Below are positions 3,582 through 11,803 of a stretch of DNA of 64,000 bases, one piece after another. Origin of the DNA: Candidatus Omnitrophota bacterium (GTDB lineage: Bacteria > Omnitrophota > Gorgyraeia > Gygaellales > Profunditerraquicolaceae); contig JAOAET010000055.1 in assembly GCA_026416665.1 (NCBI GenBank), positions 2,490-66,489 on the forward strand, read 5' to 3'. How positions within the stretch are numbered: position 1 is the stretch's first letter; each line of letters opens with the position of its first letter. The notes under the pieces were generated by a model. That model was given only the letters and a program-made list of their open reading frames with translations, was not told where the DNA came from and did not search any database. The position numbers were made by a program, and so were the translations under genes.

Positions 3582-4469
3582 CTATCCAACGATATCCATC
3601 CCAATATCTATAGATTTAACAGAGTGGGTAAGTTCGCCAATAGAGATAATATCCACACCTGTTTCTGCAACTTGACGAACATTTTTTAAAGTAATTCCAC
3701 CCGACGCCTCAAGAAGCGTTTTAGGATGGTGGGATTTAGAGAAGTCAATACTATCACGGATTTTTACCGCTTCTTTTATATCTTCAATCGACATGTTATC
3801 TAACATAATGATATCGGGTTTAAATTTCAATGCATGCTTAAACTGCTCTAGGTTTTCCACTTCAATCTCAATCTTAAAGCCTTTAGGAACACTAGGAAGC
3901 TTCTGAATCCCTTGAGCGATTTGAATATGGCTGTCTTTAATGAGTATCATTTCATCGAGGCTAATTCTGTGGTTGACTCCATCGCCTATTCTTACTGCGT
4001 ATTTCTGAAGTTCCCTTAAACCAGGCATTGTTTTACGAGTATCGGTTATTTTTACTTTAAGAGGTTCTATTGCATCTACATACTCTCTTGTTTTAGTGGC
4101 AATACCTGAGAGCATACCGAGAAAATTTAATGCTACACGTTCAGCATGTAAGATATGTCGTGCATTACCTGTGACTTCAGAAATTACAGCATTGGGTTTA
4201 AGACGTTGACCCTCTTTTGCTTTTTCAATGAAGTTAATATTTTTATCCACCAGTTCAAATACTCTCTTTGCAATAGGAATACCACAGACTACACAATCTT
4301 GTTTTGTGATAATCTTAGCATGCGTTATTTTATTTTCGGGAATAGTTAGTTGGGTTGTGATGTCGCCACGACCGATATCCTCAATAAGGGCATGTCGGAT
4401 AATCGCATCAACATTGTTCCAGTTTAATTCTAGCTTTTTGTTAGTTATTGATTGTTTAATTGAGTGCAT
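3582..4469 (-). CDS. nadC: nicotinate-nucleotide pyrophosphorylase (carboxylating)
   Basis: 295 aa QPRTase family; ISLDEMILIKDSHI and MLDNMS motifs. Confidence 0.85.
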   Translation of the reverse strand: MHSIKQSITNKKLELNWNNVDAIIRHALIEDIGRGDITTQLTIPENKITHAKIITKQDCVVCGIPIAKRVFELVDKNINFIEKAKEGQRLKPNAVISEVTGNARHILHAERVALNFLGMLSGIATKTREYVDAIEPLKVKITDTRKTMPGLRELQKYAVRIGDGVNHRISLDEMILIKDSHIQIAQGIQKLPSVPKGFKIEIEVENLEQFKHALKFKPDIIMLDNMSIEDIKEAVKIRDSIDFSKSHHPKTLLEASGGITLKNVRQVAETGVDIISIGELTHSVKSIDIGMDIVG

Positions 4470-7179
4470 TTCTAACCGCCTTTAGTTTAAGAATAATTTG
4501 TTGAAGTTCATTTAACCTGTTTTTTTCCTTTTCTACAACCTCTTTTGGAGCTTTAGCTATAAAATCCTTATTTTCTAACATTCGCTTTTTTTGTTCTATT
4601 TCTTTTTCAACTTTATTTATTCTTTCTTCTAATTTCTTCTTTTCTTTTTCAACATCTACTAAACCTTTCAATGGGATGACTACATGAATTGTTTTAATGA
4701 TATTGGTCATTGTATAATCTTGATGTTTATAATTAAGTAAAATTTTAAGGTCCTTTATTTTTGCCAGACGTTTAAGTTGCAGAGAGAGTGATTCGAAAAA
4801 CATAGCTTGTTGTTTTGTTTCAGCATAAATAACTAATGGTATTTCAGTCTGTGGTAAGATTCCAATCTCAGCACGCATTGTTCTAATACCTGCAACAACT
4901 TCAAAGAACGTTGACATTGTTTCATCTAATTTTTTATCAATGAATTTCTCATCGGCTTGGGGCCATTTTTCTAGTATTAGAAATTTATCAGATTGGTTTA
5001 GTTTATGCCAAATTTCTTCGGTGATAAATGGCATAAAAGGATGCAACAACCGTAGAAATTGTTCCAATACACAAAATAATGTTTTTTGGTTTTGTGTATT
5101 TTTTATATCTGGTTTTATCATCTCTAAATACCAGTCACAGAACTCATGCCAGAAAAACTGATAAAGTTTATTTAGTGCGTCGTTAAAACGATATACATCA
5201 AGATTTTTAGTTACCTGTTTTATAGTTAAGTTTAATCTGCTTAAAATCCAACGATTAATAATATCTAGGTTTTCTTTATTATAAGCAGATATTTGTTCTT
5301 TATCGTTTAAATAAAAATTAAGTAAACAGAATCTTGCAGCATTCCAAATTTTGTTAGCGAAGTTTCTGCCTTGTTCAAAACGTTCTTTTGATAAATAGAC
5401 ATCCTGACCTTGAGCTGTAATCATAATCAAGCTTGCGCGTAAGGCATCTGCACCGTATTGTGCAATAATTTCTAAAGGGTCAATAATATTGCCTAGGGAT
5501 TTAGACATTTTCTTGCCTTCAATATCCCTGACAGTGCCGTGTATATATACGTCACGAAAAGGAATATCTTTAATAAATTCAAAACCGGCCATAATCATCC
5601 GTGCAACCCAAAAGAAAATAATTTCCTGAGCAGTGACTAAAACTGAAGTTGGATAAAAATATCTAAGTTCCTGTTGTTTTTTCTTTGTTTCTTCATTCTG
5701 ATAAGAAAATGGCCAGCCGAAGGTAGCAAACGGCCACAACCAGGATGAAAACCAGGTGTCTAGTACGTCTTCTTCTTGAAAGATATCTTTTGACCCACAG
5801 ACAGGACAACTGTCAGGTTTTTCTTTTGAGACAATCAAAGGACAATTTGAAATTTCCTTATCGATAGGTTTTCTTTCAGCTTCCGCAGATTGACAAGCAC
5901 GACAATAATAGACTGGAATACGATGCCCCCACCAGATCTGTCTTGATATACACCAGTCTTGTATATTTTCCATCCAATTAAGATATACTTTTTTCCAACG
6001 AGCAGGATAAAACTTTATTTTACCATCTTTTACCGCTTTAATAGCTGGTTCTGCTAATGGTCGCATTTTCACGAACCATTGTTTGGAAAGGTATGGTTCG
6101 ATGATGGTATGGCACCGATAGCAGTGGCCTACAGAGATAGTATAAGGTTCTATCTTTTCTAAAAGCCCTTTTTTCTTTAACTCCTCTACAATTACTTGTC
6201 GGGCTTCAAAACGGTCCATATTATAAAAGTGACCTGCTTGTTCATTCATTCTGCCATCAGGATTCATTACACAATTAAAATCTAGTTTATGCTTTTTAGC
6301 TATAATATAGTCATTAGGGTCATGGGCAGGGGTAATCTTTACAGCGCCTGTTCCGAATTTTTTGTCAATTGATTGGTCTGCGATAATTTTTATTGTTCTA
6401 TTAACCAGAGGTAAAAGTAGTTTTTTCCCAATTATACTTTTGTAACGTTTGTCAGAAGGGTTAACTGCAACAGCGCTGTCACCAAGCATTGTCTCTGGAC
6501 GTGTTGTAGCTACCACAATAAATTTTTCTGGATTATCTACAAAAGGATAGCGAAGATAATATAAATACCCTTCTATTTGCTGATGAGGTGCTTCTTCATC
6601 CGCTAAAGCTGTCTGACAGCGTGGACACCAATTAATGATATAATTCCCCTGATAGATAAGACCTTTATTATATAAGCGAACAAAAACTTCCTTAACAGCA
6701 TCTGAATATTCATCATCCATAGTAAAACGAAGACGTTGCCAATCACAGCTTGCACCCAAGGTTTTGAGTTGCCGGATAATAGTTGAGCCATACTGTTCTT
6801 TCCATTGCCAGACGCGTTCTAAGAATTTTTCTCTTCCCAAATCCTGACGTCTTAATCCTTCTTTAGCAATAGCTTTTTCTACTACATTTTGGGTAGCAAT
6901 ACCTGCATGGTCGGTTCCCGGCATCCAAAGAGTCTCTTCTTGTTTCATTTTGTGGTAGCGTATAAGTATATCTTGAATAGTATTATTTAAGGCATGTCCC
7001 ATATGTAGAATGCCAGTAACGTTAGGAGGGGGTATGACAATGCAAAAAGGTTTTTTGTTGGGGTTATATCTTGCAGAAAAAAGATGGTTTTCTTCCCAAA
7101 GTTTATACCAGCGCTGTTCCACTTCTTTGGGATTATATGCTTTTGCTAAGTCAACTGTAGAATTATTACGCTCTAACAT
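4456..7179 (-). CDS. valS: valine--tRNA ligase
   Basis: 907 aa; HMGH (HIGH) and KMSKS motifs, C-terminal coiled coil. Confidence 0.95.
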   Translation of the reverse strand: MLERNNSTVDLAKAYNPKEVEQRWYKLWEENHLFSARYNPNKKPFCIVIPPPNVTGILHMGHALNNTIQDILIRYHKMKQEETLWMPGTDHAGIATQNVVEKAIAKEGLRRQDLGREKFLERVWQWKEQYGSTIIRQLKTLGASCDWQRLRFTMDDEYSDAVKEVFVRLYNKGLIYQGNYIINWCPRCQTALADEEAPHQQIEGYLYYLRYPFVDNPEKFIVVATTRPETMLGDSAVAVNPSDKRYKSIIGKKLLLPLVNRTIKIIADQSIDKKFGTGAVKITPAHDPNDYIIAKKHKLDFNCVMNPDGRMNEQAGHFYNMDRFEARQVIVEELKKKGLLEKIEPYTISVGHCYRCHTIIEPYLSKQWFVKMRPLAEPAIKAVKDGKIKFYPARWKKVYLNWMENIQDWCISRQIWWGHRIPVYYCRACQSAEAERKPIDKEISNCPLIVSKEKPDSCPVCGSKDIFQEEDVLDTWFSSWLWPFATFGWPFSYQNEETKKKQQELRYFYPTSVLVTAQEIIFFWVARMIMAGFEFIKDIPFRDVYIHGTVRDIEGKKMSKSLGNIIDPLEIIAQYGADALRASLIMITAQGQDVYLSKERFEQGRNFANKIWNAARFCLLNFYLNDKEQISAYNKENLDIINRWILSRLNLTIKQVTKNLDVYRFNDALNKLYQFFWHEFCDWYLEMIKPDIKNTQNQKTLFCVLEQFLRLLHPFMPFITEEIWHKLNQSDKFLILEKWPQADEKFIDKKLDETMSTFFEVVAGIRTMRAEIGILPQTEIPLVIYAETKQQAMFFESLSLQLKRLAKIKDLKILLNYKHQDYTMTNIIKTIHVVIPLKGLVDVEKEKKKLEERINKVEKEIEQKKRMLENKDFIAKAPKEVVEKEKNRLNELQQIILKLKAVRNALN

Positions 7180-7370
7180 ACGTAGGTGCCATTCTGAGTT
7201 ATAGGTTTTTCATAATATTCGCAAGTGTAATTCTTTTCGGTAAGCACACCAAGTTGTTCTGCTAACTTATCAGCCAGTTTAAGGCATCCACTTCCCTTTA
7301 TCCCTTTTACTTGCAGTTTTACCTCTCCTTCTTCGGAAATAAATAGTTCTATCTCATGTTTCTGTGCCAT
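7173..7370 (-). CDS. DUF2997-like small protein
   Basis: 65 aa; GIKGSGCL...EYY pattern typical of DUF2997; overlaps valS start by 7 nt. Confidence 0.45.
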   Translation of the reverse strand: MAQKHEIELFISEEGEVKLQVKGIKGSGCLKLADKLAEQLGVLTEKNYTCEYYEKPITQNGTYVC

Positions 7371-7387
7371 TTTAGTCCCTTTTTATT

Positions 7388-7777
7388 CTAAGTCCATTTA
7401 CGAGCAACTAAACGAATGGTATTATACGCTATTTTTTCTTCTTCTGCAATAATATAACCTTGCTTTTTTAACTCTTCAACCACAGTAATATAAGCATACT
7501 TCTGACGGATTTGTTTGATAAAATCATCTTGTTTTTTTAATTGTTCACTATTAAGTCCATGAGAATCCGCAATGATTTGATATTCTCCTTTTTCATTCTT
7601 TTGGAATCCTATAGCCCTACCATTGTCATCGTAAGTAACAAACTCAACAGAGTAAATTCTGCCATCAGTGGTAGCCATACTTTTTATTTGTCTATATTCT
7701 CTACCTAACGCAATAAGTGATTGAATAAGTATAACCGCAAGTCGTATTTGAATTCCTATTCCAAAATGTCCCGACAT
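7388..7777 (-). CDS. DUF1257 (Ycf35-like) protein
   Basis: 129 aa starting MSGHFG, like the MSHFS start of the DUF1257/Ycf35 family. Confidence 0.5.
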   Translation of the reverse strand: MSGHFGIGIQIRLAVILIQSLIALGREYRQIKSMATTDGRIYSVEFVTYDDNGRAIGFQKNEKGEYQIIADSHGLNSEQLKKQDDFIKQIRQKYAYITVVEELKKQGYIIAEEEKIAYNTIRLVARKWT

Positions 7778-7789
7778 AAATTACCTGTT

Positions 7790-8494
7790 TTACTGTGTTA
7801 AATATAAACAGCTACGCACTTGAATAGCTATCCAAAAAAGTAGAGTAACAAGTCCTAAAACACGTAAAATAATCTGGAGTTTTATTTTTCTAATTTCTCT
7901 TTCCTGCTTTTGTCGTTGGTTTTCAATTTTTTCATTGTGTTGGCTTAACCAGTCATTAATTAACTCTTCGCTATAGCCTTCTCTTCTTATACGTTGCATA
8001 AGTTGTTTAATTGGCTCTGGAAGATTTTTATCAGTAGATTTATATATAACACCATCAATCTTTAGGGTAATAATATTTTCTTCAGCTGGTTTTACTTCAC
8101 TTGCGCCGTATAGATTAAAGTCACGACCACATACCCAACAATTTCTTCTTTCTTTTAGGTTAATTGCTCCACAGATACATCTTTTTAAAAGATCCTCCTG
8201 TCCGGTATAATCAGCAATATATTCCGAGTATATTTTACGATGGCAGTTCTGACAGGTTAAGGCGTTTTGACTGTTTTTTTCACCACAGAATGGGCAAGAA
8301 ATGAATCTTTGTTCTTGTTGTCCTGATTTTTCTAATGGACAGACCTTGTCCAGAAGACAGAATTCAACTATATGTTCATTTACTTCTAACCGTTCAAATC
8401 TTCTGTTTAATACAGATTTTTCTAAACAGGAAAAATCTTTTGGGGGACATGATTTGTTTTCAAGCCGTTCAAATCTCTTTAAAGATCTTCTCAT
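7790..8494 (-). CDS. double zinc-ribbon protein with C-terminal transmembrane anchor
   Basis: Two CxxC...CxxC pairs (CPFCG..CQNCH; CICG..CWVCG), repeated RFERLE, C-terminal hydrophobic helix LGLVTLLFWIAI. Confidence 0.5.
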   Translation of the reverse strand: MRRSLKRFERLENKSCPPKDFSCLEKSVLNRRFERLEVNEHIVEFCLLDKVCPLEKSGQQEQRFISCPFCGEKNSQNALTCQNCHRKIYSEYIADYTGQEDLLKRCICGAINLKERRNCWVCGRDFNLYGASEVKPAEENIITLKIDGVIYKSTDKNLPEPIKQLMQRIRREGYSEELINDWLSQHNEKIENQRQKQEREIRKIKLQIILRVLGLVTLLFWIAIQVRSCLYLTQ

Positions 8495-8500
8495 AAAAAA

Positions 8501-10045
8501 TTATAATTCTAATTTCCTCTCTTTACGAACTAATGCTGGCGGAGTAGTAGAACTTGCTGGACGTGCGCGGTCATGTGCCCATAAACGCAGCTTTTCTATT
8601 TCTTCTCTCATTGTTACGGATAAAGGCACACTTAGTTTTATGTTTTTAAGAATGTCTACAGTAGAAAGTTGACGTTCTTGTATAAAGGCATCGTAGAGCC
8701 CTGAGATTATTGCTTGTTCAATCTCTGCTCCACTAAAGCCAGCGGATTCTTCAGCAAGAAGTGGTATATCAAATTGTAAAGGGTCACGATTTCTTTTTCT
8801 TAGATGGATCTGAAATATCTGTTTACGTTCTTCAATGGATGGTAGATCTACAAAGAATATATCATCAAATCTACCTTTTCTTAGTAATTCAGGAGGTAAT
8901 AGAGAAACGGTGTTGGCAGTGGCTATAACAAACACTGGTGAGGTTTTTTCTTGTAACCACGTTAAAAAAGTACTAAATACTCTTGCGGAGGTTCCTGCAT
9001 CAGAAAAAGTGGAGCTTTGTATACCAGAAAGGCCTTTTTCTATCTCATCAATCCACAACACAATTGGTGCAAGTTGTTCAGCTGTTTTAATAGCACGCCT
9101 CATATTTTCTTCTGAAGAACCAACAATTCCAGAAAAAATAGCTCCAATATCTAATCTCAACAAAGGCAATTTCCAGAGACCAGCAACTGATTTTGCAGTT
9201 AGACTTTTACCACAGCCTTGAATCCCAATCAAAAGAAGTCCTTTAGGTTGAGGGATACCAAACTCCTCTGCTTTTTTACTAAAAGATAAACCTCTTTTAA
9301 TTAACCATTCTTTTAAGATATCCAGACCACCAATATTAGAAAATTCCTCTTGTGCTTCATAATACTCTAGAAACTTTGTCTTTCTAATTGCTTGTTTCTT
9401 TTCCTGCAAGATTCTGGGGATGTCCTTTTCACTTAAGGATTTGTCTTCTACGATTGAACGGGCAAAGGCATTTTCTACTTCTTGACGGGTAAGACCAAGT
9501 GCCGCCTTAATAAGTTTTTCCTTAGTTGTGTCATCCAACAAAATTTGAATATCTTGGTTTTTAGATAAAACGGTAATAATACCATTTAATAAATCCGCTA
9601 TCTCTTGGTAATCTGGTAAATCATAATCAATTACTACCAGGTCTTTTTCTAATTCAATAGGAACTGTTAATACCGGTGAAAGCATTATTAAAGTCTCATA
9701 GGTATTCTTAAGGTTTATTACAAGGTCTCGCAGTTTACGGATAATAGTATGGTCACCGAGAAAAGGATGAAAATCAAGTAAAACAATTAATGCCGGATCA
9801 GTCATTCTTTCGATATAACAAAGTGCGTTAAAAGGGTCTCTTGTGGCTTCATCGATTTTTGAAGGGTCATCTTCCAAACTGTGGATTCCTCTACAGATGG
9901 ACCACAAGAGTAACTTCTTTCTTCTTTCTTGAGACATTTCCTTTAATCTTTCCAATACCCGCATTTCTTCCCAGCTTACAATATAGATTAAAGGGTATCT
10001 AGAACGTATTAAAATATCAATTTCTTTATCATTCTTTAACGACAT
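8501..10045 (-). CDS. AAA+ ATPase, Ycf46-like
   Basis: 514 aa; Walker A GIQGCGKS, Walker B IVLWIDEIEK, sensor/arginine finger, long N-terminal domain as in cyanobacterial/plastid Ycf46. Confidence 0.75.
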   Translation of the reverse strand: MSLKNDKEIDILIRSRYPLIYIVSWEEMRVLERLKEMSQERRKKLLLWSICRGIHSLEDDPSKIDEATRDPFNALCYIERMTDPALIVLLDFHPFLGDHTIIRKLRDLVINLKNTYETLIMLSPVLTVPIELEKDLVVIDYDLPDYQEIADLLNGIITVLSKNQDIQILLDDTTKEKLIKAALGLTRQEVENAFARSIVEDKSLSEKDIPRILQEKKQAIRKTKFLEYYEAQEEFSNIGGLDILKEWLIKRGLSFSKKAEEFGIPQPKGLLLIGIQGCGKSLTAKSVAGLWKLPLLRLDIGAIFSGIVGSSEENMRRAIKTAEQLAPIVLWIDEIEKGLSGIQSSTFSDAGTSARVFSTFLTWLQEKTSPVFVIATANTVSLLPPELLRKGRFDDIFFVDLPSIEERKQIFQIHLRKRNRDPLQFDIPLLAEESAGFSGAEIEQAIISGLYDAFIQERQLSTVDILKNIKLSVPLSVTMREEIEKLRLWAHDRARPASSTTPPALVRKERKLEL

Positions 10046-10216
10046 AGAATTTCTTTATTTTAACCGCAATATAAAGAAAGTTTATTTTTCTCATTAATGC
10101 CAATTTTTCTAAGAAGGTCATAAATTTTACTGTTGGTATTTTCAATAAGTAAATTTCCCGATGGTTCAATATAAATTTCTATATAGTGGCTGTATTTAGA
10201 GTTGTTCTTAGAATAA

Positions 10217-11803
10217 CTATTTTGGTTGGCTTTTCTTTTTTTCATTATCCTTAAGCAGTTTATATTCAAAAGAGTCTGAAAGCGCTTGCCAGGAGGCCTC
10301 AATAATATTTTCTGATACGCCTATTGTATTCCAACTATCTTTTTCATCTTGTGACTGTATAAGCACACGCACTCTGGCGGCGGTTCCTTCCTTTTCATCA
10401 AGGACTCTCACTTTAAAATCAGATAGGTGCATCTCGGCTAATTTAGGATAAAAATTCATTAGAGCTTTTCTTAAGGCATTATCTAATGCGTTTACAGGGC
10501 CATCACCGTCTGCTGCGGTATGCTCAAGTTTACCTTTCACACGTAACTTAATAATTGCCTCAGTAGTTGCTTTTTTATTTGTTTCTTTATTTACCACTAC
10601 TCTGAAGCTTTCAAGTTTAAACATCTGATGAACCTTACTTAAGGCTTTTTTAAGAATCAATTCAAAGGATGCCTCTGCAGCTTCAAAGTGATAACCTTTC
10701 ATCTCTAGTTTCTGAAGTAGATTATGGAGTTTCTTTGTCTTAGGATCATCTTTAGTAAGATCAAGATTTAGCTCTTTGGCTAGAATGATAATACTGGATT
10801 TACCACCGAGTTCAGAGATAAGAATTCGACGCTTATTTCCCACTGCCTCAGGTGGAATATGTTCGTAGGAACGGCTATCTTTCATTACTGCATTTATATG
10901 AACCCCACCTTTATGGGCAAAGGCAGAATCGCCTACATAGGGTTGGTTATTAGCATGACGCATATTACTTACTTCGCTGACAAAATGGGAAACTTCTGTT
11001 GCCTTGGCAAGTTGTTCGTCACTGATACAATTAATACCTAATTTTAATTTCAAATTGGAGATTATAGGAATAAGGTCAGCATTTCCACAGCGTTCTCCAT
11101 AGCCATTGATTGTACCTTGACACATAGAACAACCTGCTTGAATTGCTGCTAGTGAGTTGGCTACAGCTACCCCTGCGTCATTGTGACAATGTATGCCAAG
11201 AGGTATTGTTATATTTTTCTTTACTTGTTTTATTGCTTCACTAATTTGGTCCGGTAAAGTGCCACCATTTGTGTCACAAAGTACCAGATAAGATGCCCCA
11301 GCTTGTTGTGCAGTTTTCAAACACTTAAGGGTATATTCAGGATTATCCTTATAGGCATCAAAAAAATGTTCAGCATCATAGAAAACTTTCAATCCTTTTT
11401 TTACTAAAAAAGAAATGCTGTCAGCAATCATCTCAAGATTTTCTTCAGGACTGACTTTTAAAACATTTTTAATATGTAAAAGCCAGGTTTTACCAAAGAT
11501 AGTTGCAAATTTTACTTTTGAATTGATAATATCATTTAAGTTTTTATCCCTGGCAGCTCTTATACCAGAACGGCGAGTTGAACCAAAAGCCACAATATGA
11601 CAGTTACCCAAAGATTTCTTGGCCATTATTTCAAAAAACTGGGCATCTTTAGGATTAGAACCAGGCCAGCCTCCCTCAATATAGTGAATACCAAATTCAG
11701 CTAGTTTTTCTGCAATGCGTATTTTGTCGGATAAAGAATAATTTATACCTTCGGCTTGGGAACCGTCTCTAAGAGTTGTATCATAAAGGATAACGTTTTT
11801 CAT
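10217..11803 (-). CDS. cimA: (R)-citramalate synthase / 2-isopropylmalate synthase family
   Basis: 528 aa; N-terminal LYDTTLRDGSQ HMGL-like TIM barrel plus C-terminal LeuA dimerisation domain. Confidence 0.8.
   Translation of the reverse strand: MKNVILYDTTLRDGSQAEGINYSLSDKIRIAEKLAEFGIHYIEGGWPGSNPKDAQFFEIMAKKSLGNCHIVAFGSTRRSGIRAARDKNLNDIINSKVKFATIFGKTWLLHIKNVLKVSPEENLEMIADSISFLVKKGLKVFYDAEHFFDAYKDNPEYTLKCLKTAQQAGASYLVLCDTNGGTLPDQISEAIKQVKKNITIPLGIHCHNDAGVAVANSLAAIQAGCSMCQGTINGYGERCGNADLIPIISNLKLKLGINCISDEQLAKATEVSHFVSEVSNMRHANNQPYVGDSAFAHKGGVHINAVMKDSRSYEHIPPEAVGNKRRILISELGGKSSIIILAKELNLDLTKDDPKTKKLHNLLQKLEMKGYHFEAAEASFELILKKALSKVHQMFKLESFRVVVNKETNKKATTEAIIKLRVKGKLEHTAADGDGPVNALDNALRKALMNFYPKLAEMHLSDFKVRVLDEKEGTAARVRVLIQSQDEKDSWNTIGVSENIIEASWQALSDSFEYKLLKDNEKKKSQPK

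Follow-up and report, generated by a model that had tools for sequence, protein, structure and literature searches.

Four tightly packed genes lie on the minus strand of a 64,000-nucleotide stretch of DNA from a Candidatus Omnitrophota bacterium (assembly GCA_026416665.1, contig JAOAET010000055.1, positions 2,490 to 66,489), referred to throughout as the window. In the direction of transcription these genes encode a Ycf46-type AAA+ ATPase (8501-10045; 514 amino acids, aa), a tail-anchored zinc-ribbon protein with a repeated RFERLE motif (7790-8494; 234 aa), a DUF1257 or Ycf35-type protein (7388-7777; 129 aa), and a DUF2997 protein (7173-7370; 65 aa). Direct reading of the sequence places gaps of 6, 12, and 17 nucleotides (nt) between them and an overlap of 7 nt (ATGTTAG) between the end of the DUF2997 gene and the start of valS at 7179, reproducing in full the arrangement described in an earlier note on this DNA, which had been made from the sequence alone. 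In the public record the DUF1257 gene is already named as such, while the zinc-ribbon gene is listed as "hypothetical protein N2606_07245".

Taken together, the comparisons presented below suggest that the window most likely carries the Omnitrophota version of a widespread protein-remodelling system built around the Ycf46-type ATPase. Across genomes this ATPase has two recurrent kinds of genomic partner, namely the DUF1257 and DUF2997 pair, and unrelated proteins bearing a terminal RFxx[LI]E motif, a class to which the zinc-ribbon protein of the window belongs. The ATPase's own ERKLEL ending is a tail related to that motif.

The Ycf46-Type ATPase

Membership of the ATPase in the classical AAA+ clade is evident from a score of 97.9 bits against PF00004 (cut-off 21.2) and from intact Walker A (GIQGCGKS, nt 9203-9226), Walker B (VLWIDEIE, nt 9038-9061), and arginine-finger (LLRKGRFD, nt 8864-8887; the RxGRFD box) motifs, with a pore-loop region, SGIVGSSE, at nt 9110-9133. 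The classical AAA domain (residues 234-447, nt 8705-9346) matches the D2 domain of p97 by profile at E ~1e-61, the D2 domains of p97 and Cdc48 being its closest solved relatives, and it appears to be the one catalytically competent domain of the protein. The long N-terminal domain noticed earlier is also real: approximately 230 aa precede the AAA domain, giving the Ycf46-type plan of a long conserved N-domain followed by a single AAA domain, equal in length and layout to cyanobacterial and plastid Ycf46 (slr0374, Synpcc7942_0417). Full-length alignments (residues ~7-500) could be made to the ATPases of 80 genomes, with identities of 73% to other Omnitrophota and of 45-58% to other phyla, including 49% to a metagenome-assembled genome (MAG) labelled Cyanobacteria (L057) and 46-47% to Melainabacteria. 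Database names for these relatives are of the generic form "SpoVK/Ycf46/Vps4 family".

The N-domain (residues 1-222, nt 9380-10045) contains at least 20 residues that are invariant across 55 sequences, among them E26, E27, R29, D91, R103, and R106, with H93 nearly so. By sequence, the first 230 residues match none of the solved structures. In an AlphaFold2 model of the ATPase (pLDDT 81.8), the N-domain is predicted to fold as a five-stranded alpha/beta core followed by a four-helix bundle, and Foldseek aligns the model over ~570 columns to the D1 and D2 domains of p97, Cdc48, Drg1, and Rix7 (E ~1e-19, TMq 0.56-0.63). Because the whole model aligns end to end with D1 plus D2 of p97/Cdc48, the ~220-residue N-domain looks like a degenerate, D1-like pseudo-ATPase domain.

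The likeness to p97/Cdc48/VAT, Drg1/Afg2, and Rix7 consists of the classical clade, the RxGRFD box, and the best sequence and fold matches; in addition, unrelated partner proteins share a short linear motif in both the p97/Cdc48 system and the present one, and the ATPase of each has a conserved C-terminal tail. Differences are equally apparent. The D1 equivalent of the window protein lacks Walker A and B motifs and arginine fingers, and a double-psi-barrel N-domain is missing; DUF1257, DUF2997, and a zinc-ribbon membrane protein stand in the place of adaptors of the UBX/Npl4 type; and RFxx[LI]E / R-x-L-E-L-COOH shows no sequence relationship to VIM, VBM, SHP, or HbYX.

In cyanobacteria, ycf46 lies in a three-gene operon that is induced by many stresses and requires (p)ppGpp in S. 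elongatus, and the function of ycf46 is unknown (PMC7496141; 10.1101/2025.07.21.665879). The duf2997-ycf35 pair, ycf35 encoding the DUF1257 family protein of cyanobacteria and plastids, is a known gene pair clustered with the ferredoxin gene fed7 (PMC4284462), and this cluster is unlinked to ycf46 (PMC4284462; 10.1101/2025.07.21.665879), whereas in the window the corresponding genes stand in one array together with the zinc-ribbon gene. Freshwater red algae have preferentially lost a set of plastid genes that includes both ycf35 and ycf46 (PMC5940233). The CO2 and stress phenotypes ascribed to Ycf46 and Ycf35 come from phototrophs and are not simply transferable to the module of the window.

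Distribution of the ATPase, DUF1257, and DUF2997 Trio

A scan with the ATPase alignment over one genome per GTDB species gave at least 597 relatives, 597 of the 600 candidate stretches listed being confirmed. Eighty-five sources were compared, including the best 80 of these relatives and four loci (L001-L004) obtained by looking up encoding contigs, and partners were sought by iterating hidden Markov models (HMMs) built from the window proteins over six-frame open reading frames (ORFs) of the loci. The 80 fetched loci span approximately 15 phyla at 45-58% full-length identity to the window ATPase. Carriers include Armatimonadota, Planctomycetota, Myxococcota, Chloroflexota, Spirochaetes, KSB1, Nitrospinota, and Bacteroidia; Firmicutes (Paenibacillus, Aneurinibacillus, Romboutsia) and Actinobacteria (Micromonospora, Dactylosporangium, Microbacterium); MAGs labelled Melainabacteria or Cyanobacteria; and Asgard and methanogenic archaea.

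DUF1257 adjoins the ATPase in 40 of the 85 sources and DUF2997 in 42, and in 39 sources from ~15 phyla both are found on the ATPase strand, mostly immediately 3' of it. The trio occurs in Elusimicrobia, Planctomycetota, Myxococcota, KSB1, Firmicutes, Actinobacteria, Melainabacteria, and Asgard archaea, and is thus a conserved module found beyond photosynthetic organisms. The proposal of a conserved module is thereby upheld for the trio, but not for the zinc-ribbon protein as a fixed fourth subunit. Likewise, the suggestion that such a module would be notable in a non-photosynthetic heterotroph does not hold: the ATPase is present in at least 597 species-representative genomes from many phyla, and with the trio widespread across heterotrophs, archaea, and viruses, its presence in a heterotroph is ordinary. 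A literature search found five papers that mention DUF1257 or DUF2997, but no paper on the association of the ATPase with the two, or on the RFxxLE motif.

Two further arrangements were observed among these loci. Seven Myxococcota loci (L029, L034, L036, L037, L040, L044, L077) share an extended operon containing genes for an FHA/coiled-coil protein, the ATPase, DUF1257, DUF2997, an eCIS_core protein (DUF4157, HExxH), a pentapeptide-repeat protein, and a protein ending in RFSLLELD; structural genes for contractile injection were not found near it. Separately, a gene of ~198 aa resembling NrdG, a radical-SAM protein of the glycyl-radical activase type, adjoins the ATPase in 15 loci from Elusimicrobia, Spirochaetes, Melainabacteria, Firmicutes, and Actinobacteria (L004 at 5381-5956, L030, L033, L059-L061, L064, L065, L067, L068, L070, L071, L073, L076, and L078), scoring 105-120 bits, under the 126-bit NrdG cut-off.

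The DUF1257 and DUF2997 Proteins

The identities assigned earlier to the two small proteins were borne out by Pfam HMMs. The DUF1257 protein scores 67.5 bits against PF06868 (cut-off 22.2), covering profile positions 5-103 of 103, and the DUF2997 protein 45.9 bits against PF11211 (cut-off 24.1); the MSGHFG start of the former and the GIKGSGC sequence of the latter (nt 7284-7304) are both present. An N-terminal MSH motif has been reported for essentially all Ycf35 proteins (PMC13060386), the canonical N-terminus being MSHFT where the window protein begins MSGH(FG). Across 25 sequences Ser2 of DUF1257 is invariant, and the His is shifted or lost in Omnitrophota, Elusimicrobia, and Planctomycetota. 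The AlphaFold2 model of DUF1257 (pLDDT 86.6) is predicted to comprise a beta-sheet with one long helix. Foldseek found nothing significant for this model in the PDB, the best match being the AMPK alpha C-terminal domain (E = 0.06, TM-score 0.39) and all PDB matches having TM-scores at or below 0.43; PDB profile searches with DUF1257 and DUF2997 yielded noise alone (E at least 0.02). Residues 7-25 of DUF1257 (window 7703-7759) form an unusually hydrophobic stretch, GIGIQIRLAVILIQSLIAL, with a mean Kyte-Doolittle value of 1.94, which is modelled with high confidence as a strand and a helix.

DUF2997 is laid out as a beta-hairpin, a G-x-K-G-x-x-C loop, a helix, and a further strand. Across 29 sequences drawn from many phyla its G15, G26, and C29 do not vary, and the window protein has all three. 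A natural fusion in a viral locus from IMG/VR (L095, 4197-4778) suggests joint action of the two proteins: a single ORF of 193 aa there encodes a canonical DUF1257 (MSHITTV...) followed by a DUF2997 domain at residues 129-184.

One interpretation of these conserved residues is chemical: DUF2997 and DUF1257 might bind a metal or an iron-sulfur cluster, or carry a radical, with the ATPase serving as a maturation or insertion factor. The invariant Cys of DUF2997 (G..G..C), the invariant N-terminal Ser of DUF1257, usually followed by His, the NrdG-like activase homolog (below the NrdG cut-off) beside the ATPase in 15 loci of five phyla, and the clustering of duf2997-ycf35 with fed7 in cyanobacteria (PMC4284462) would all be consistent with such a role. 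However, neither the window nor most loci have a radical-SAM or ferredoxin gene nearby, and a single Cys in a protein of 65 aa offers slender grounds for a cluster. Moreover, glycyl radicals would be incompatible with oxygenic cyanobacteria and plastids, and the AAA+ proteins known to insert metals are of the MoxR clade, whereas the ATPase here belongs to the classical clade. We therefore consider a redox, metal, or radical role quite improbable.

The Zinc-Ribbon Membrane Protein

Each feature claimed for the second protein of the array was recovered. Two Cys4 sets are present (C67/C70/C81/C84 and C106/C108/C119/C122), the second being invariant in the family, and by hydropathy the protein has a single hydrophobic segment, near its C-terminus (residues 208-226 of 234, nt 7817-7873; mean Kyte-Doolittle 2.33), the arrangement of a tail-anchored protein. 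The RFERLE motif occurs twice, at residues 7-12 (nt 8459-8476) and 32-37 (nt 8384-8401), and is conserved. Against the double zinc-ribbon model PF12773 (DZR) the window protein scores 21.8 bits, under the cut-off of 27.3, which its close relatives P0179 and P0287 pass; curated Pfam and NCBIfam models contain nothing for this family beyond generic zinc ribbons.

An exhaustive HMMER search found 78 clusters of the family at 50% identity among 1.84 billion proteins, and a metagenome scan with a narrower family alignment gave five loci, two of which are real relatives. The shared plan comprises two RF[DE]xLE motifs ~22 residues apart, the second nearly invariant (R32, F33, L36, and E37; alignment A5), one or two zinc ribbons, one or two "IDGxxYxSxDxxLP...EGYS...W" domains (in the window protein at residues 146-182, nt 7949-8059), and usually a C-terminal anchor, the hydrophobic C-terminus being kept in most, though not all, members.

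Family members lie directly 3' of the same ATPase in Omnitrophota and in all six of the distant members checked (L085, L086, and L090-L093), which derive from two soil metagenome contigs, one Elusimicrobia genome, and three other contigs. The ATPases beside these six are of 502-512 aa, are 52-57% identical to that of the window, and have no adjoining DUF1257 or DUF2997. Since all six distant members pair with the ATPase without DUF1257 and DUF2997, the ATPase and zinc-ribbon protein constitute a second, independent module: the zinc-ribbon protein represents a separate partner class of the ATPase, and the two modules are merged in Omnitrophota.

A Terminal Motif Shared by ATPase Neighbors

The strict form of the motif, RFE.LE, matches 19 times in 805,000 residues of six-frame ORFs, 17 of these matches falling in same-strand ORFs adjacent to the ATPase. 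In ORFs starting just 3' of the ATPase, RF..[LI]E was observed 18 times, compared with 0.67 ± 0.81 (maximum 5) in residue shuffles, and a broader C-terminal tail pattern is present in 29 of 1576 same-strand ORFs, compared with 2.3 ± 1.5 in shuffles and with 6 of 1730 ORFs on the opposite strand. Throughout the 64-kb window, a terminal RF..[LI]E is found solely in the zinc-ribbon protein, and a tail of the RxLEL type solely in the ATPase.

The proteins that carry the motif are diverse. At the N-terminus it is found on SNF2 helicases with a zinc ribbon (Chloroflexota), NHL propellers (Armatimonadota), and zinc-ribbon/coiled-coil/transmembrane proteins (Myxococcota); at the C-terminus, on the Myxococcota family ending ...RFSLLELD, spirochaete proteins (...RFGKLEMD), pentapeptide proteins, an archaeal SbcC-like ATPase (...ERFEKLEI), and several phage proteins including Corndog gp92. 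ComEA-like helix-hairpin-helix (HhH) proteins are also among the carriers. These data suggest that the terminal motif is probably a docking or recognition tag of the ATPase system.

The ATPase itself bears a related ending. In the window it is ERKLEL-COOH (8504-8521; pattern R-x-[LIVM]-[ED]-[LIFVMW]), and by lineage the ending is ...GERKLEL in Myxococcota and ...RGGRTLDF in Firmicutes, Actinobacteria, Melainabacteria, and Methanosphaera. Tails are matched between the ATPase and its neighbors: where the ATPase ends in RKLEL the neighbors end in RFxxLE[L]D, and where it ends in GRTIDF the neighbors, which are ComEA-like HhH membrane proteins, end in GRVIDF or ERxxDL. In cellular loci a tail is present on 27 of 39 ATPases with adjoining DUF1257/DUF2997 versus 3 of 39 without (Fisher p = 2e-8), and it is absent from the ATPases of the zinc-ribbon-only loci L090-L093.

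This association raises the possibility that the DUF1257-DUF2997 pair serves as the receptor hub in place of the ATPase. The pair would then form a small platform, perhaps ring-shaped and seated on the exit side of the D2 ring, where C-terminal R-x-L-E-L tails of both the ATPase and accessory proteins dock, and the ATPase would act on what the hub gathers; HbYX tails on the 20S proteasome and EEVD tails on TPR co-chaperones would be comparable. In addition to the distribution of the tail just described, and its absence in L090-L093, nearly all C-terminally tailed proteins occur in loci with DUF1257/DUF2997, the fusion in L095 points to joint action of the pair, and the invariant Ser2 of DUF1257 and G15, G26, and C29 of DUF2997 suggest a defined functional site. 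Conversely, the proteins with an N-terminal RFxxLE (SNF2, NHL, zinc-ribbon) mostly stand beside ATPases without DUF1257/DUF2997 nearby, viral ATPases are often tailed without a detectable pair nearby, part of the tail correlation may be phylogenetic, and the DUF1257 fold, which matches nothing solved, offers no structural hint of a peptide groove. On balance, a receptor hub of this kind appears unlikely, while retaining more than token plausibility.

Two further observations concern motif carriers. In the rumen bacterium locus L059 (299-5341), seven tandem paralogs of ~230 aa, each with a transmembrane segment and a ComEA-like HhH, lie upstream of the ATPase, and each ends in ER.[LIV]D[LIF]. 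In four Myxococcota/Deltaproteobacteria loci (L013, L018, L021, L075), the RFxxLE/transmembrane protein downstream of the ATPase lies, among the six-frame ORFs, inside a much longer ORF that overlaps the ATPase gene; this long ORF is probably an artefact of high GC content, with few stop codons, and not a fusion.

Viral and Phage Copies

The module is by no means confined to cells. Full-length relatives of the ATPase are encoded on 105 IMG/VR contigs, and among 80 viral loci examined DUF1257 was found in 27 and DUF2997 in 30. Eighty records of isolated phages match the ATPase. Rhizobium phage RHph_I4 has the order ATPase, a 212-aa hypothetical protein, DUF1257, DUF2997, and its record annotates the genes accordingly, while cluster O mycobacteriophages carry the ATPase alone (Corndog gp96), DUF1257 and DUF2997 not being detected among the Corndog genes tested. 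The window ATPase matches phrog_8638 with 513 bits over its full length; DUF1257 corresponds to phrog_20456 and DUF2997 to phrog_23133, and all three core families are of unknown function in PHROGs. Phage operons with small tag-ending proteins beside the ATPase were seen in Mycobacterium phage Corndog (L174, 3920-7664), where gp92 ends ...HRFSQLEH, and in L120 (816-4869), where three proteins end SRF..[LI]E.

The frequency of the module in phages invites its interpretation as a conflict system, in anti-phage defence or phage counter-defence, with the ATPase sensing or activating variable effectors. Variable accessory genes do surround a constant core (SNF2, SbcC-like ATPase, eCIS_core/DUF4157, pentapeptide, FHA, NrdG-like radical-SAM), the ATPase scores 90.6 bits against IetA of PADLOC, and a BrnT/CopG toxin-antitoxin pair stands beside L091. 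The IetA match, however, is to the generic AAA domain alone (residues 257-487) with no IetS protease present, and no small protein matches PADLOC. Furthermore, ATPase identities of 45-58% across phyla are unusual for defence genes, the Omnitrophota module is vertically syntenic between cimA and valS, and in the literature the module is retained in plastids and stress-induced in cyanobacteria. Such a role is accordingly improbable.

Membership in the IetAS system specifically was rejected. The ATPase scores 77.4 bits against the NCBIfam IetA model, whose cut-off is 510; only the AAA domain matches (77-91 bits over the IetA models), and the IetS protease partner is not present, no protease gene being found in the window array.

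Genomic Context in Omnitrophota

Upstream of the four genes lies a fifth that the earlier note had overlooked: a small conserved ORF of 61 aa (10060-10245, minus strand), 14 nt upstream of the ATPase start, whose own start falls within the final codons of cimA. Its N-terminus is basic, and it contains a "YIEIYIEPSG" hairpin and ends in LYCG. Homologs occupy the equivalent position in L001/L007 (L001 5764-5970, where it is called as a gene), L005 (5813-5983), and L006 (89-355), and the family consensus consists of a hairpin "Y[IL]EI.I.xSG" and an invariant C-terminal [YF]CG. The ORF has no match in Pfam or PHROGs, and the idea that it is a DUF2997 paralog was rejected (4.4 bits over 15 residues, not significant). 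It is possibly a fifth member of the Omnitrophota version of the module.

The order small ORF, ATPase, zinc-ribbon protein, DUF1257, DUF2997, valS is found in four other Omnitrophota loci (L001, L002, L005, and L007), with L006 differing, and the Omnitrophota loci share a wider synteny of the form apgM-ask-cimA ... valS-nadC-uvrB. Outside Omnitrophota, a zinc-ribbon gene between the ATPase and DUF1257 with valS downstream was not found among the loci compared, nor was valS found near the module in any non-Omnitrophota locus examined. Conservation of the four-gene order with valS is thus real within Omnitrophota and does not extend beyond it. In the window, valS (4456-7179, minus strand; 907 aa; Pfam tRNA-synt_1, Anticodon_1, and Val_tRNA-synt_C) is a neighbor outside the module.

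Read-through into valS had been put forward as a feature of the module, and a functional tie to valS, such as a quality-control role in translation or for valyl-tRNA synthetase, might be argued from the 7-nt overlap of the DUF2997 gene with valS, from the equal order in the four other Omnitrophota loci, and from tRNA-modification genes near two further loci (tgt and queA in L004; queC in L090). Yet the adjacency is confined to Omnitrophota, and in L001 the DUF2997-valS junction is a 28-nt gap without overlap. The whole region is, in addition, syntenic, co-directional, and packed: the first 28 kb of the window form a dense array of co-directional minus-strand genes with overlapping or abutting boundaries, and cimA, the small ORF, valS, and nadC overlap or abut as well (valS overlapping nadC). 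Because the module has other neighbors elsewhere and the Omnitrophota array is tightly packed, the coupling to valS is best read as local genome compaction; a functional tie, already largely refuted through missing conservation, is very improbable indeed. The window copy is an ordinary, vertically inherited member of a widespread module, and its association with valS has no special meaning.

Promoter and terminator scans, with counts no higher than those in shuffled sequence, did not define the operon boundaries. GC skew is uniformly negative over window positions 1-28000 and positive at ~28-30 kb and 38-48 kb.

A Model for the Ycf46-Type System

Reading the locus as a protein-remodelling system, we propose, by analogy with p97/Cdc48, a general model in which terminal RFxxLE / RxLEL peptides mark the clients or adaptors of a hexameric, Cdc48-like motor, a model that stands just short of an even chance of being correct. 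The ATPase would form a hexamer that, powered by ATP hydrolysis, unfolds, extracts, or remodels its clients, and the terminal RFxxLE / RxLE[L] peptides would be docking or recognition elements. The zinc-ribbon protein would display its two RFERLE peptides on the cytoplasmic face of the membrane, and with two peptides displayed there it would either recruit the motor to the membrane or itself be a client. DUF1257 and DUF2997 would act as a joint small cofactor or regulator, possibly as a docking partner of the ATPase C-terminal tail. The receptor of the motif could be the D1-like domain, DUF1257/DUF2997, or a protein encoded elsewhere.

Precedents for such logic exist. The docking peptides may be likened to the VIM/VBM/SHP motifs and HbYX tails of p97/Cdc48/PAN, or to the MIM motifs of Vps4 clients. 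Vps4 with the MIM motifs of ESCRT-III, and ClpX with ssrA, are alike in logic alone, in that terminal motifs mark unrelated clients of a ring ATPase, but the window system has no MIT domain or known tag-binding adaptor. The cargo-loading ATPases Pvc15 and Afp15 of extracellular contractile injection systems (eCIS) recognize N-terminal leader sequences. They resemble the present system in combining a Cdc48-like ATPase with terminally tagged clients, and eCIS_core (DUF4157) occurs in the Myxococcota loci; on the other hand, no locus has sheath, tube, or baseplate genes, and the window has no eCIS_core gene.

Several points weigh against this interpretation. Firstly, neither partner class lies within the fetched flanks in 26 of the 85 sources. 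Secondly, the motif was counted in six-frame ORFs and not in curated gene calls, and, the loci being phylogenetically related, the motif and tail counts are not independent events; the correlation of the tail with DUF1257/DUF2997 was, moreover, not reproduced in viral loci, though the tail is frequent there. Thirdly, the D1-like assignment comes from a single AlphaFold2 model built from a shallow alignment, and the N-domain is not recognizable in sequence as a duplicate of the AAA domain (hhalign E = 0.17, not significant), although the register is suggestive and, as a weak echo of the lid/SRH region in favor of the D1-like reading, pairs "VPIELEK..DLVVIDYDLP ... GLTRQEVENA" of the N-domain with "LPPELLRKGRFD..IFFVDLP ... 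GFSGAEIEQA" of the active domain. Finally, Ile-Val replaces the usual aromatic residue in the pore loop SGIVGSSE, so that processive threading is not assured.

What is new at the level of the family is the p97-like architecture predicted for the ATPase, its two partner classes, and the terminal motif. For decades Ycf46 and Ycf35 stood as orphan "hypothetical chloroplast reading frames"; the present comparisons link them genomically in bacteria, archaea, and phages alike. A testable handle is offered by the terminal motif of six residues that the neighbors and the ATPase tail bear, and it yields a list of candidate clients or adaptors that includes SNF2 helicases, the SbcC-like ATPase, ComEA-like DNA-binding membrane proteins, and zinc-ribbon membrane proteins. 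Relatives occur in tractable systems, namely Synechocystis, Paenibacillus, Micromonospora, mycobacteriophage Corndog, and Rhizobium phage RHph_I4. We tentatively put forward, as a proposal somewhat easier to doubt than to accept, that RFxx[LI]E / R-x-L-[ED]-[LIF]-COOH may be an unrecognized docking or degron code read by a Ycf46-type, p97-like ATPase system of bacteria, archaea, plastid-bearing lineages, and phages, with DUF1257·DUF2997 as a new kind of tail-docked partner. If true, the orphan ycf46 and ycf35 would be two halves of one protein-remodelling pathway, the clients of which could be read from genomes by their tag.

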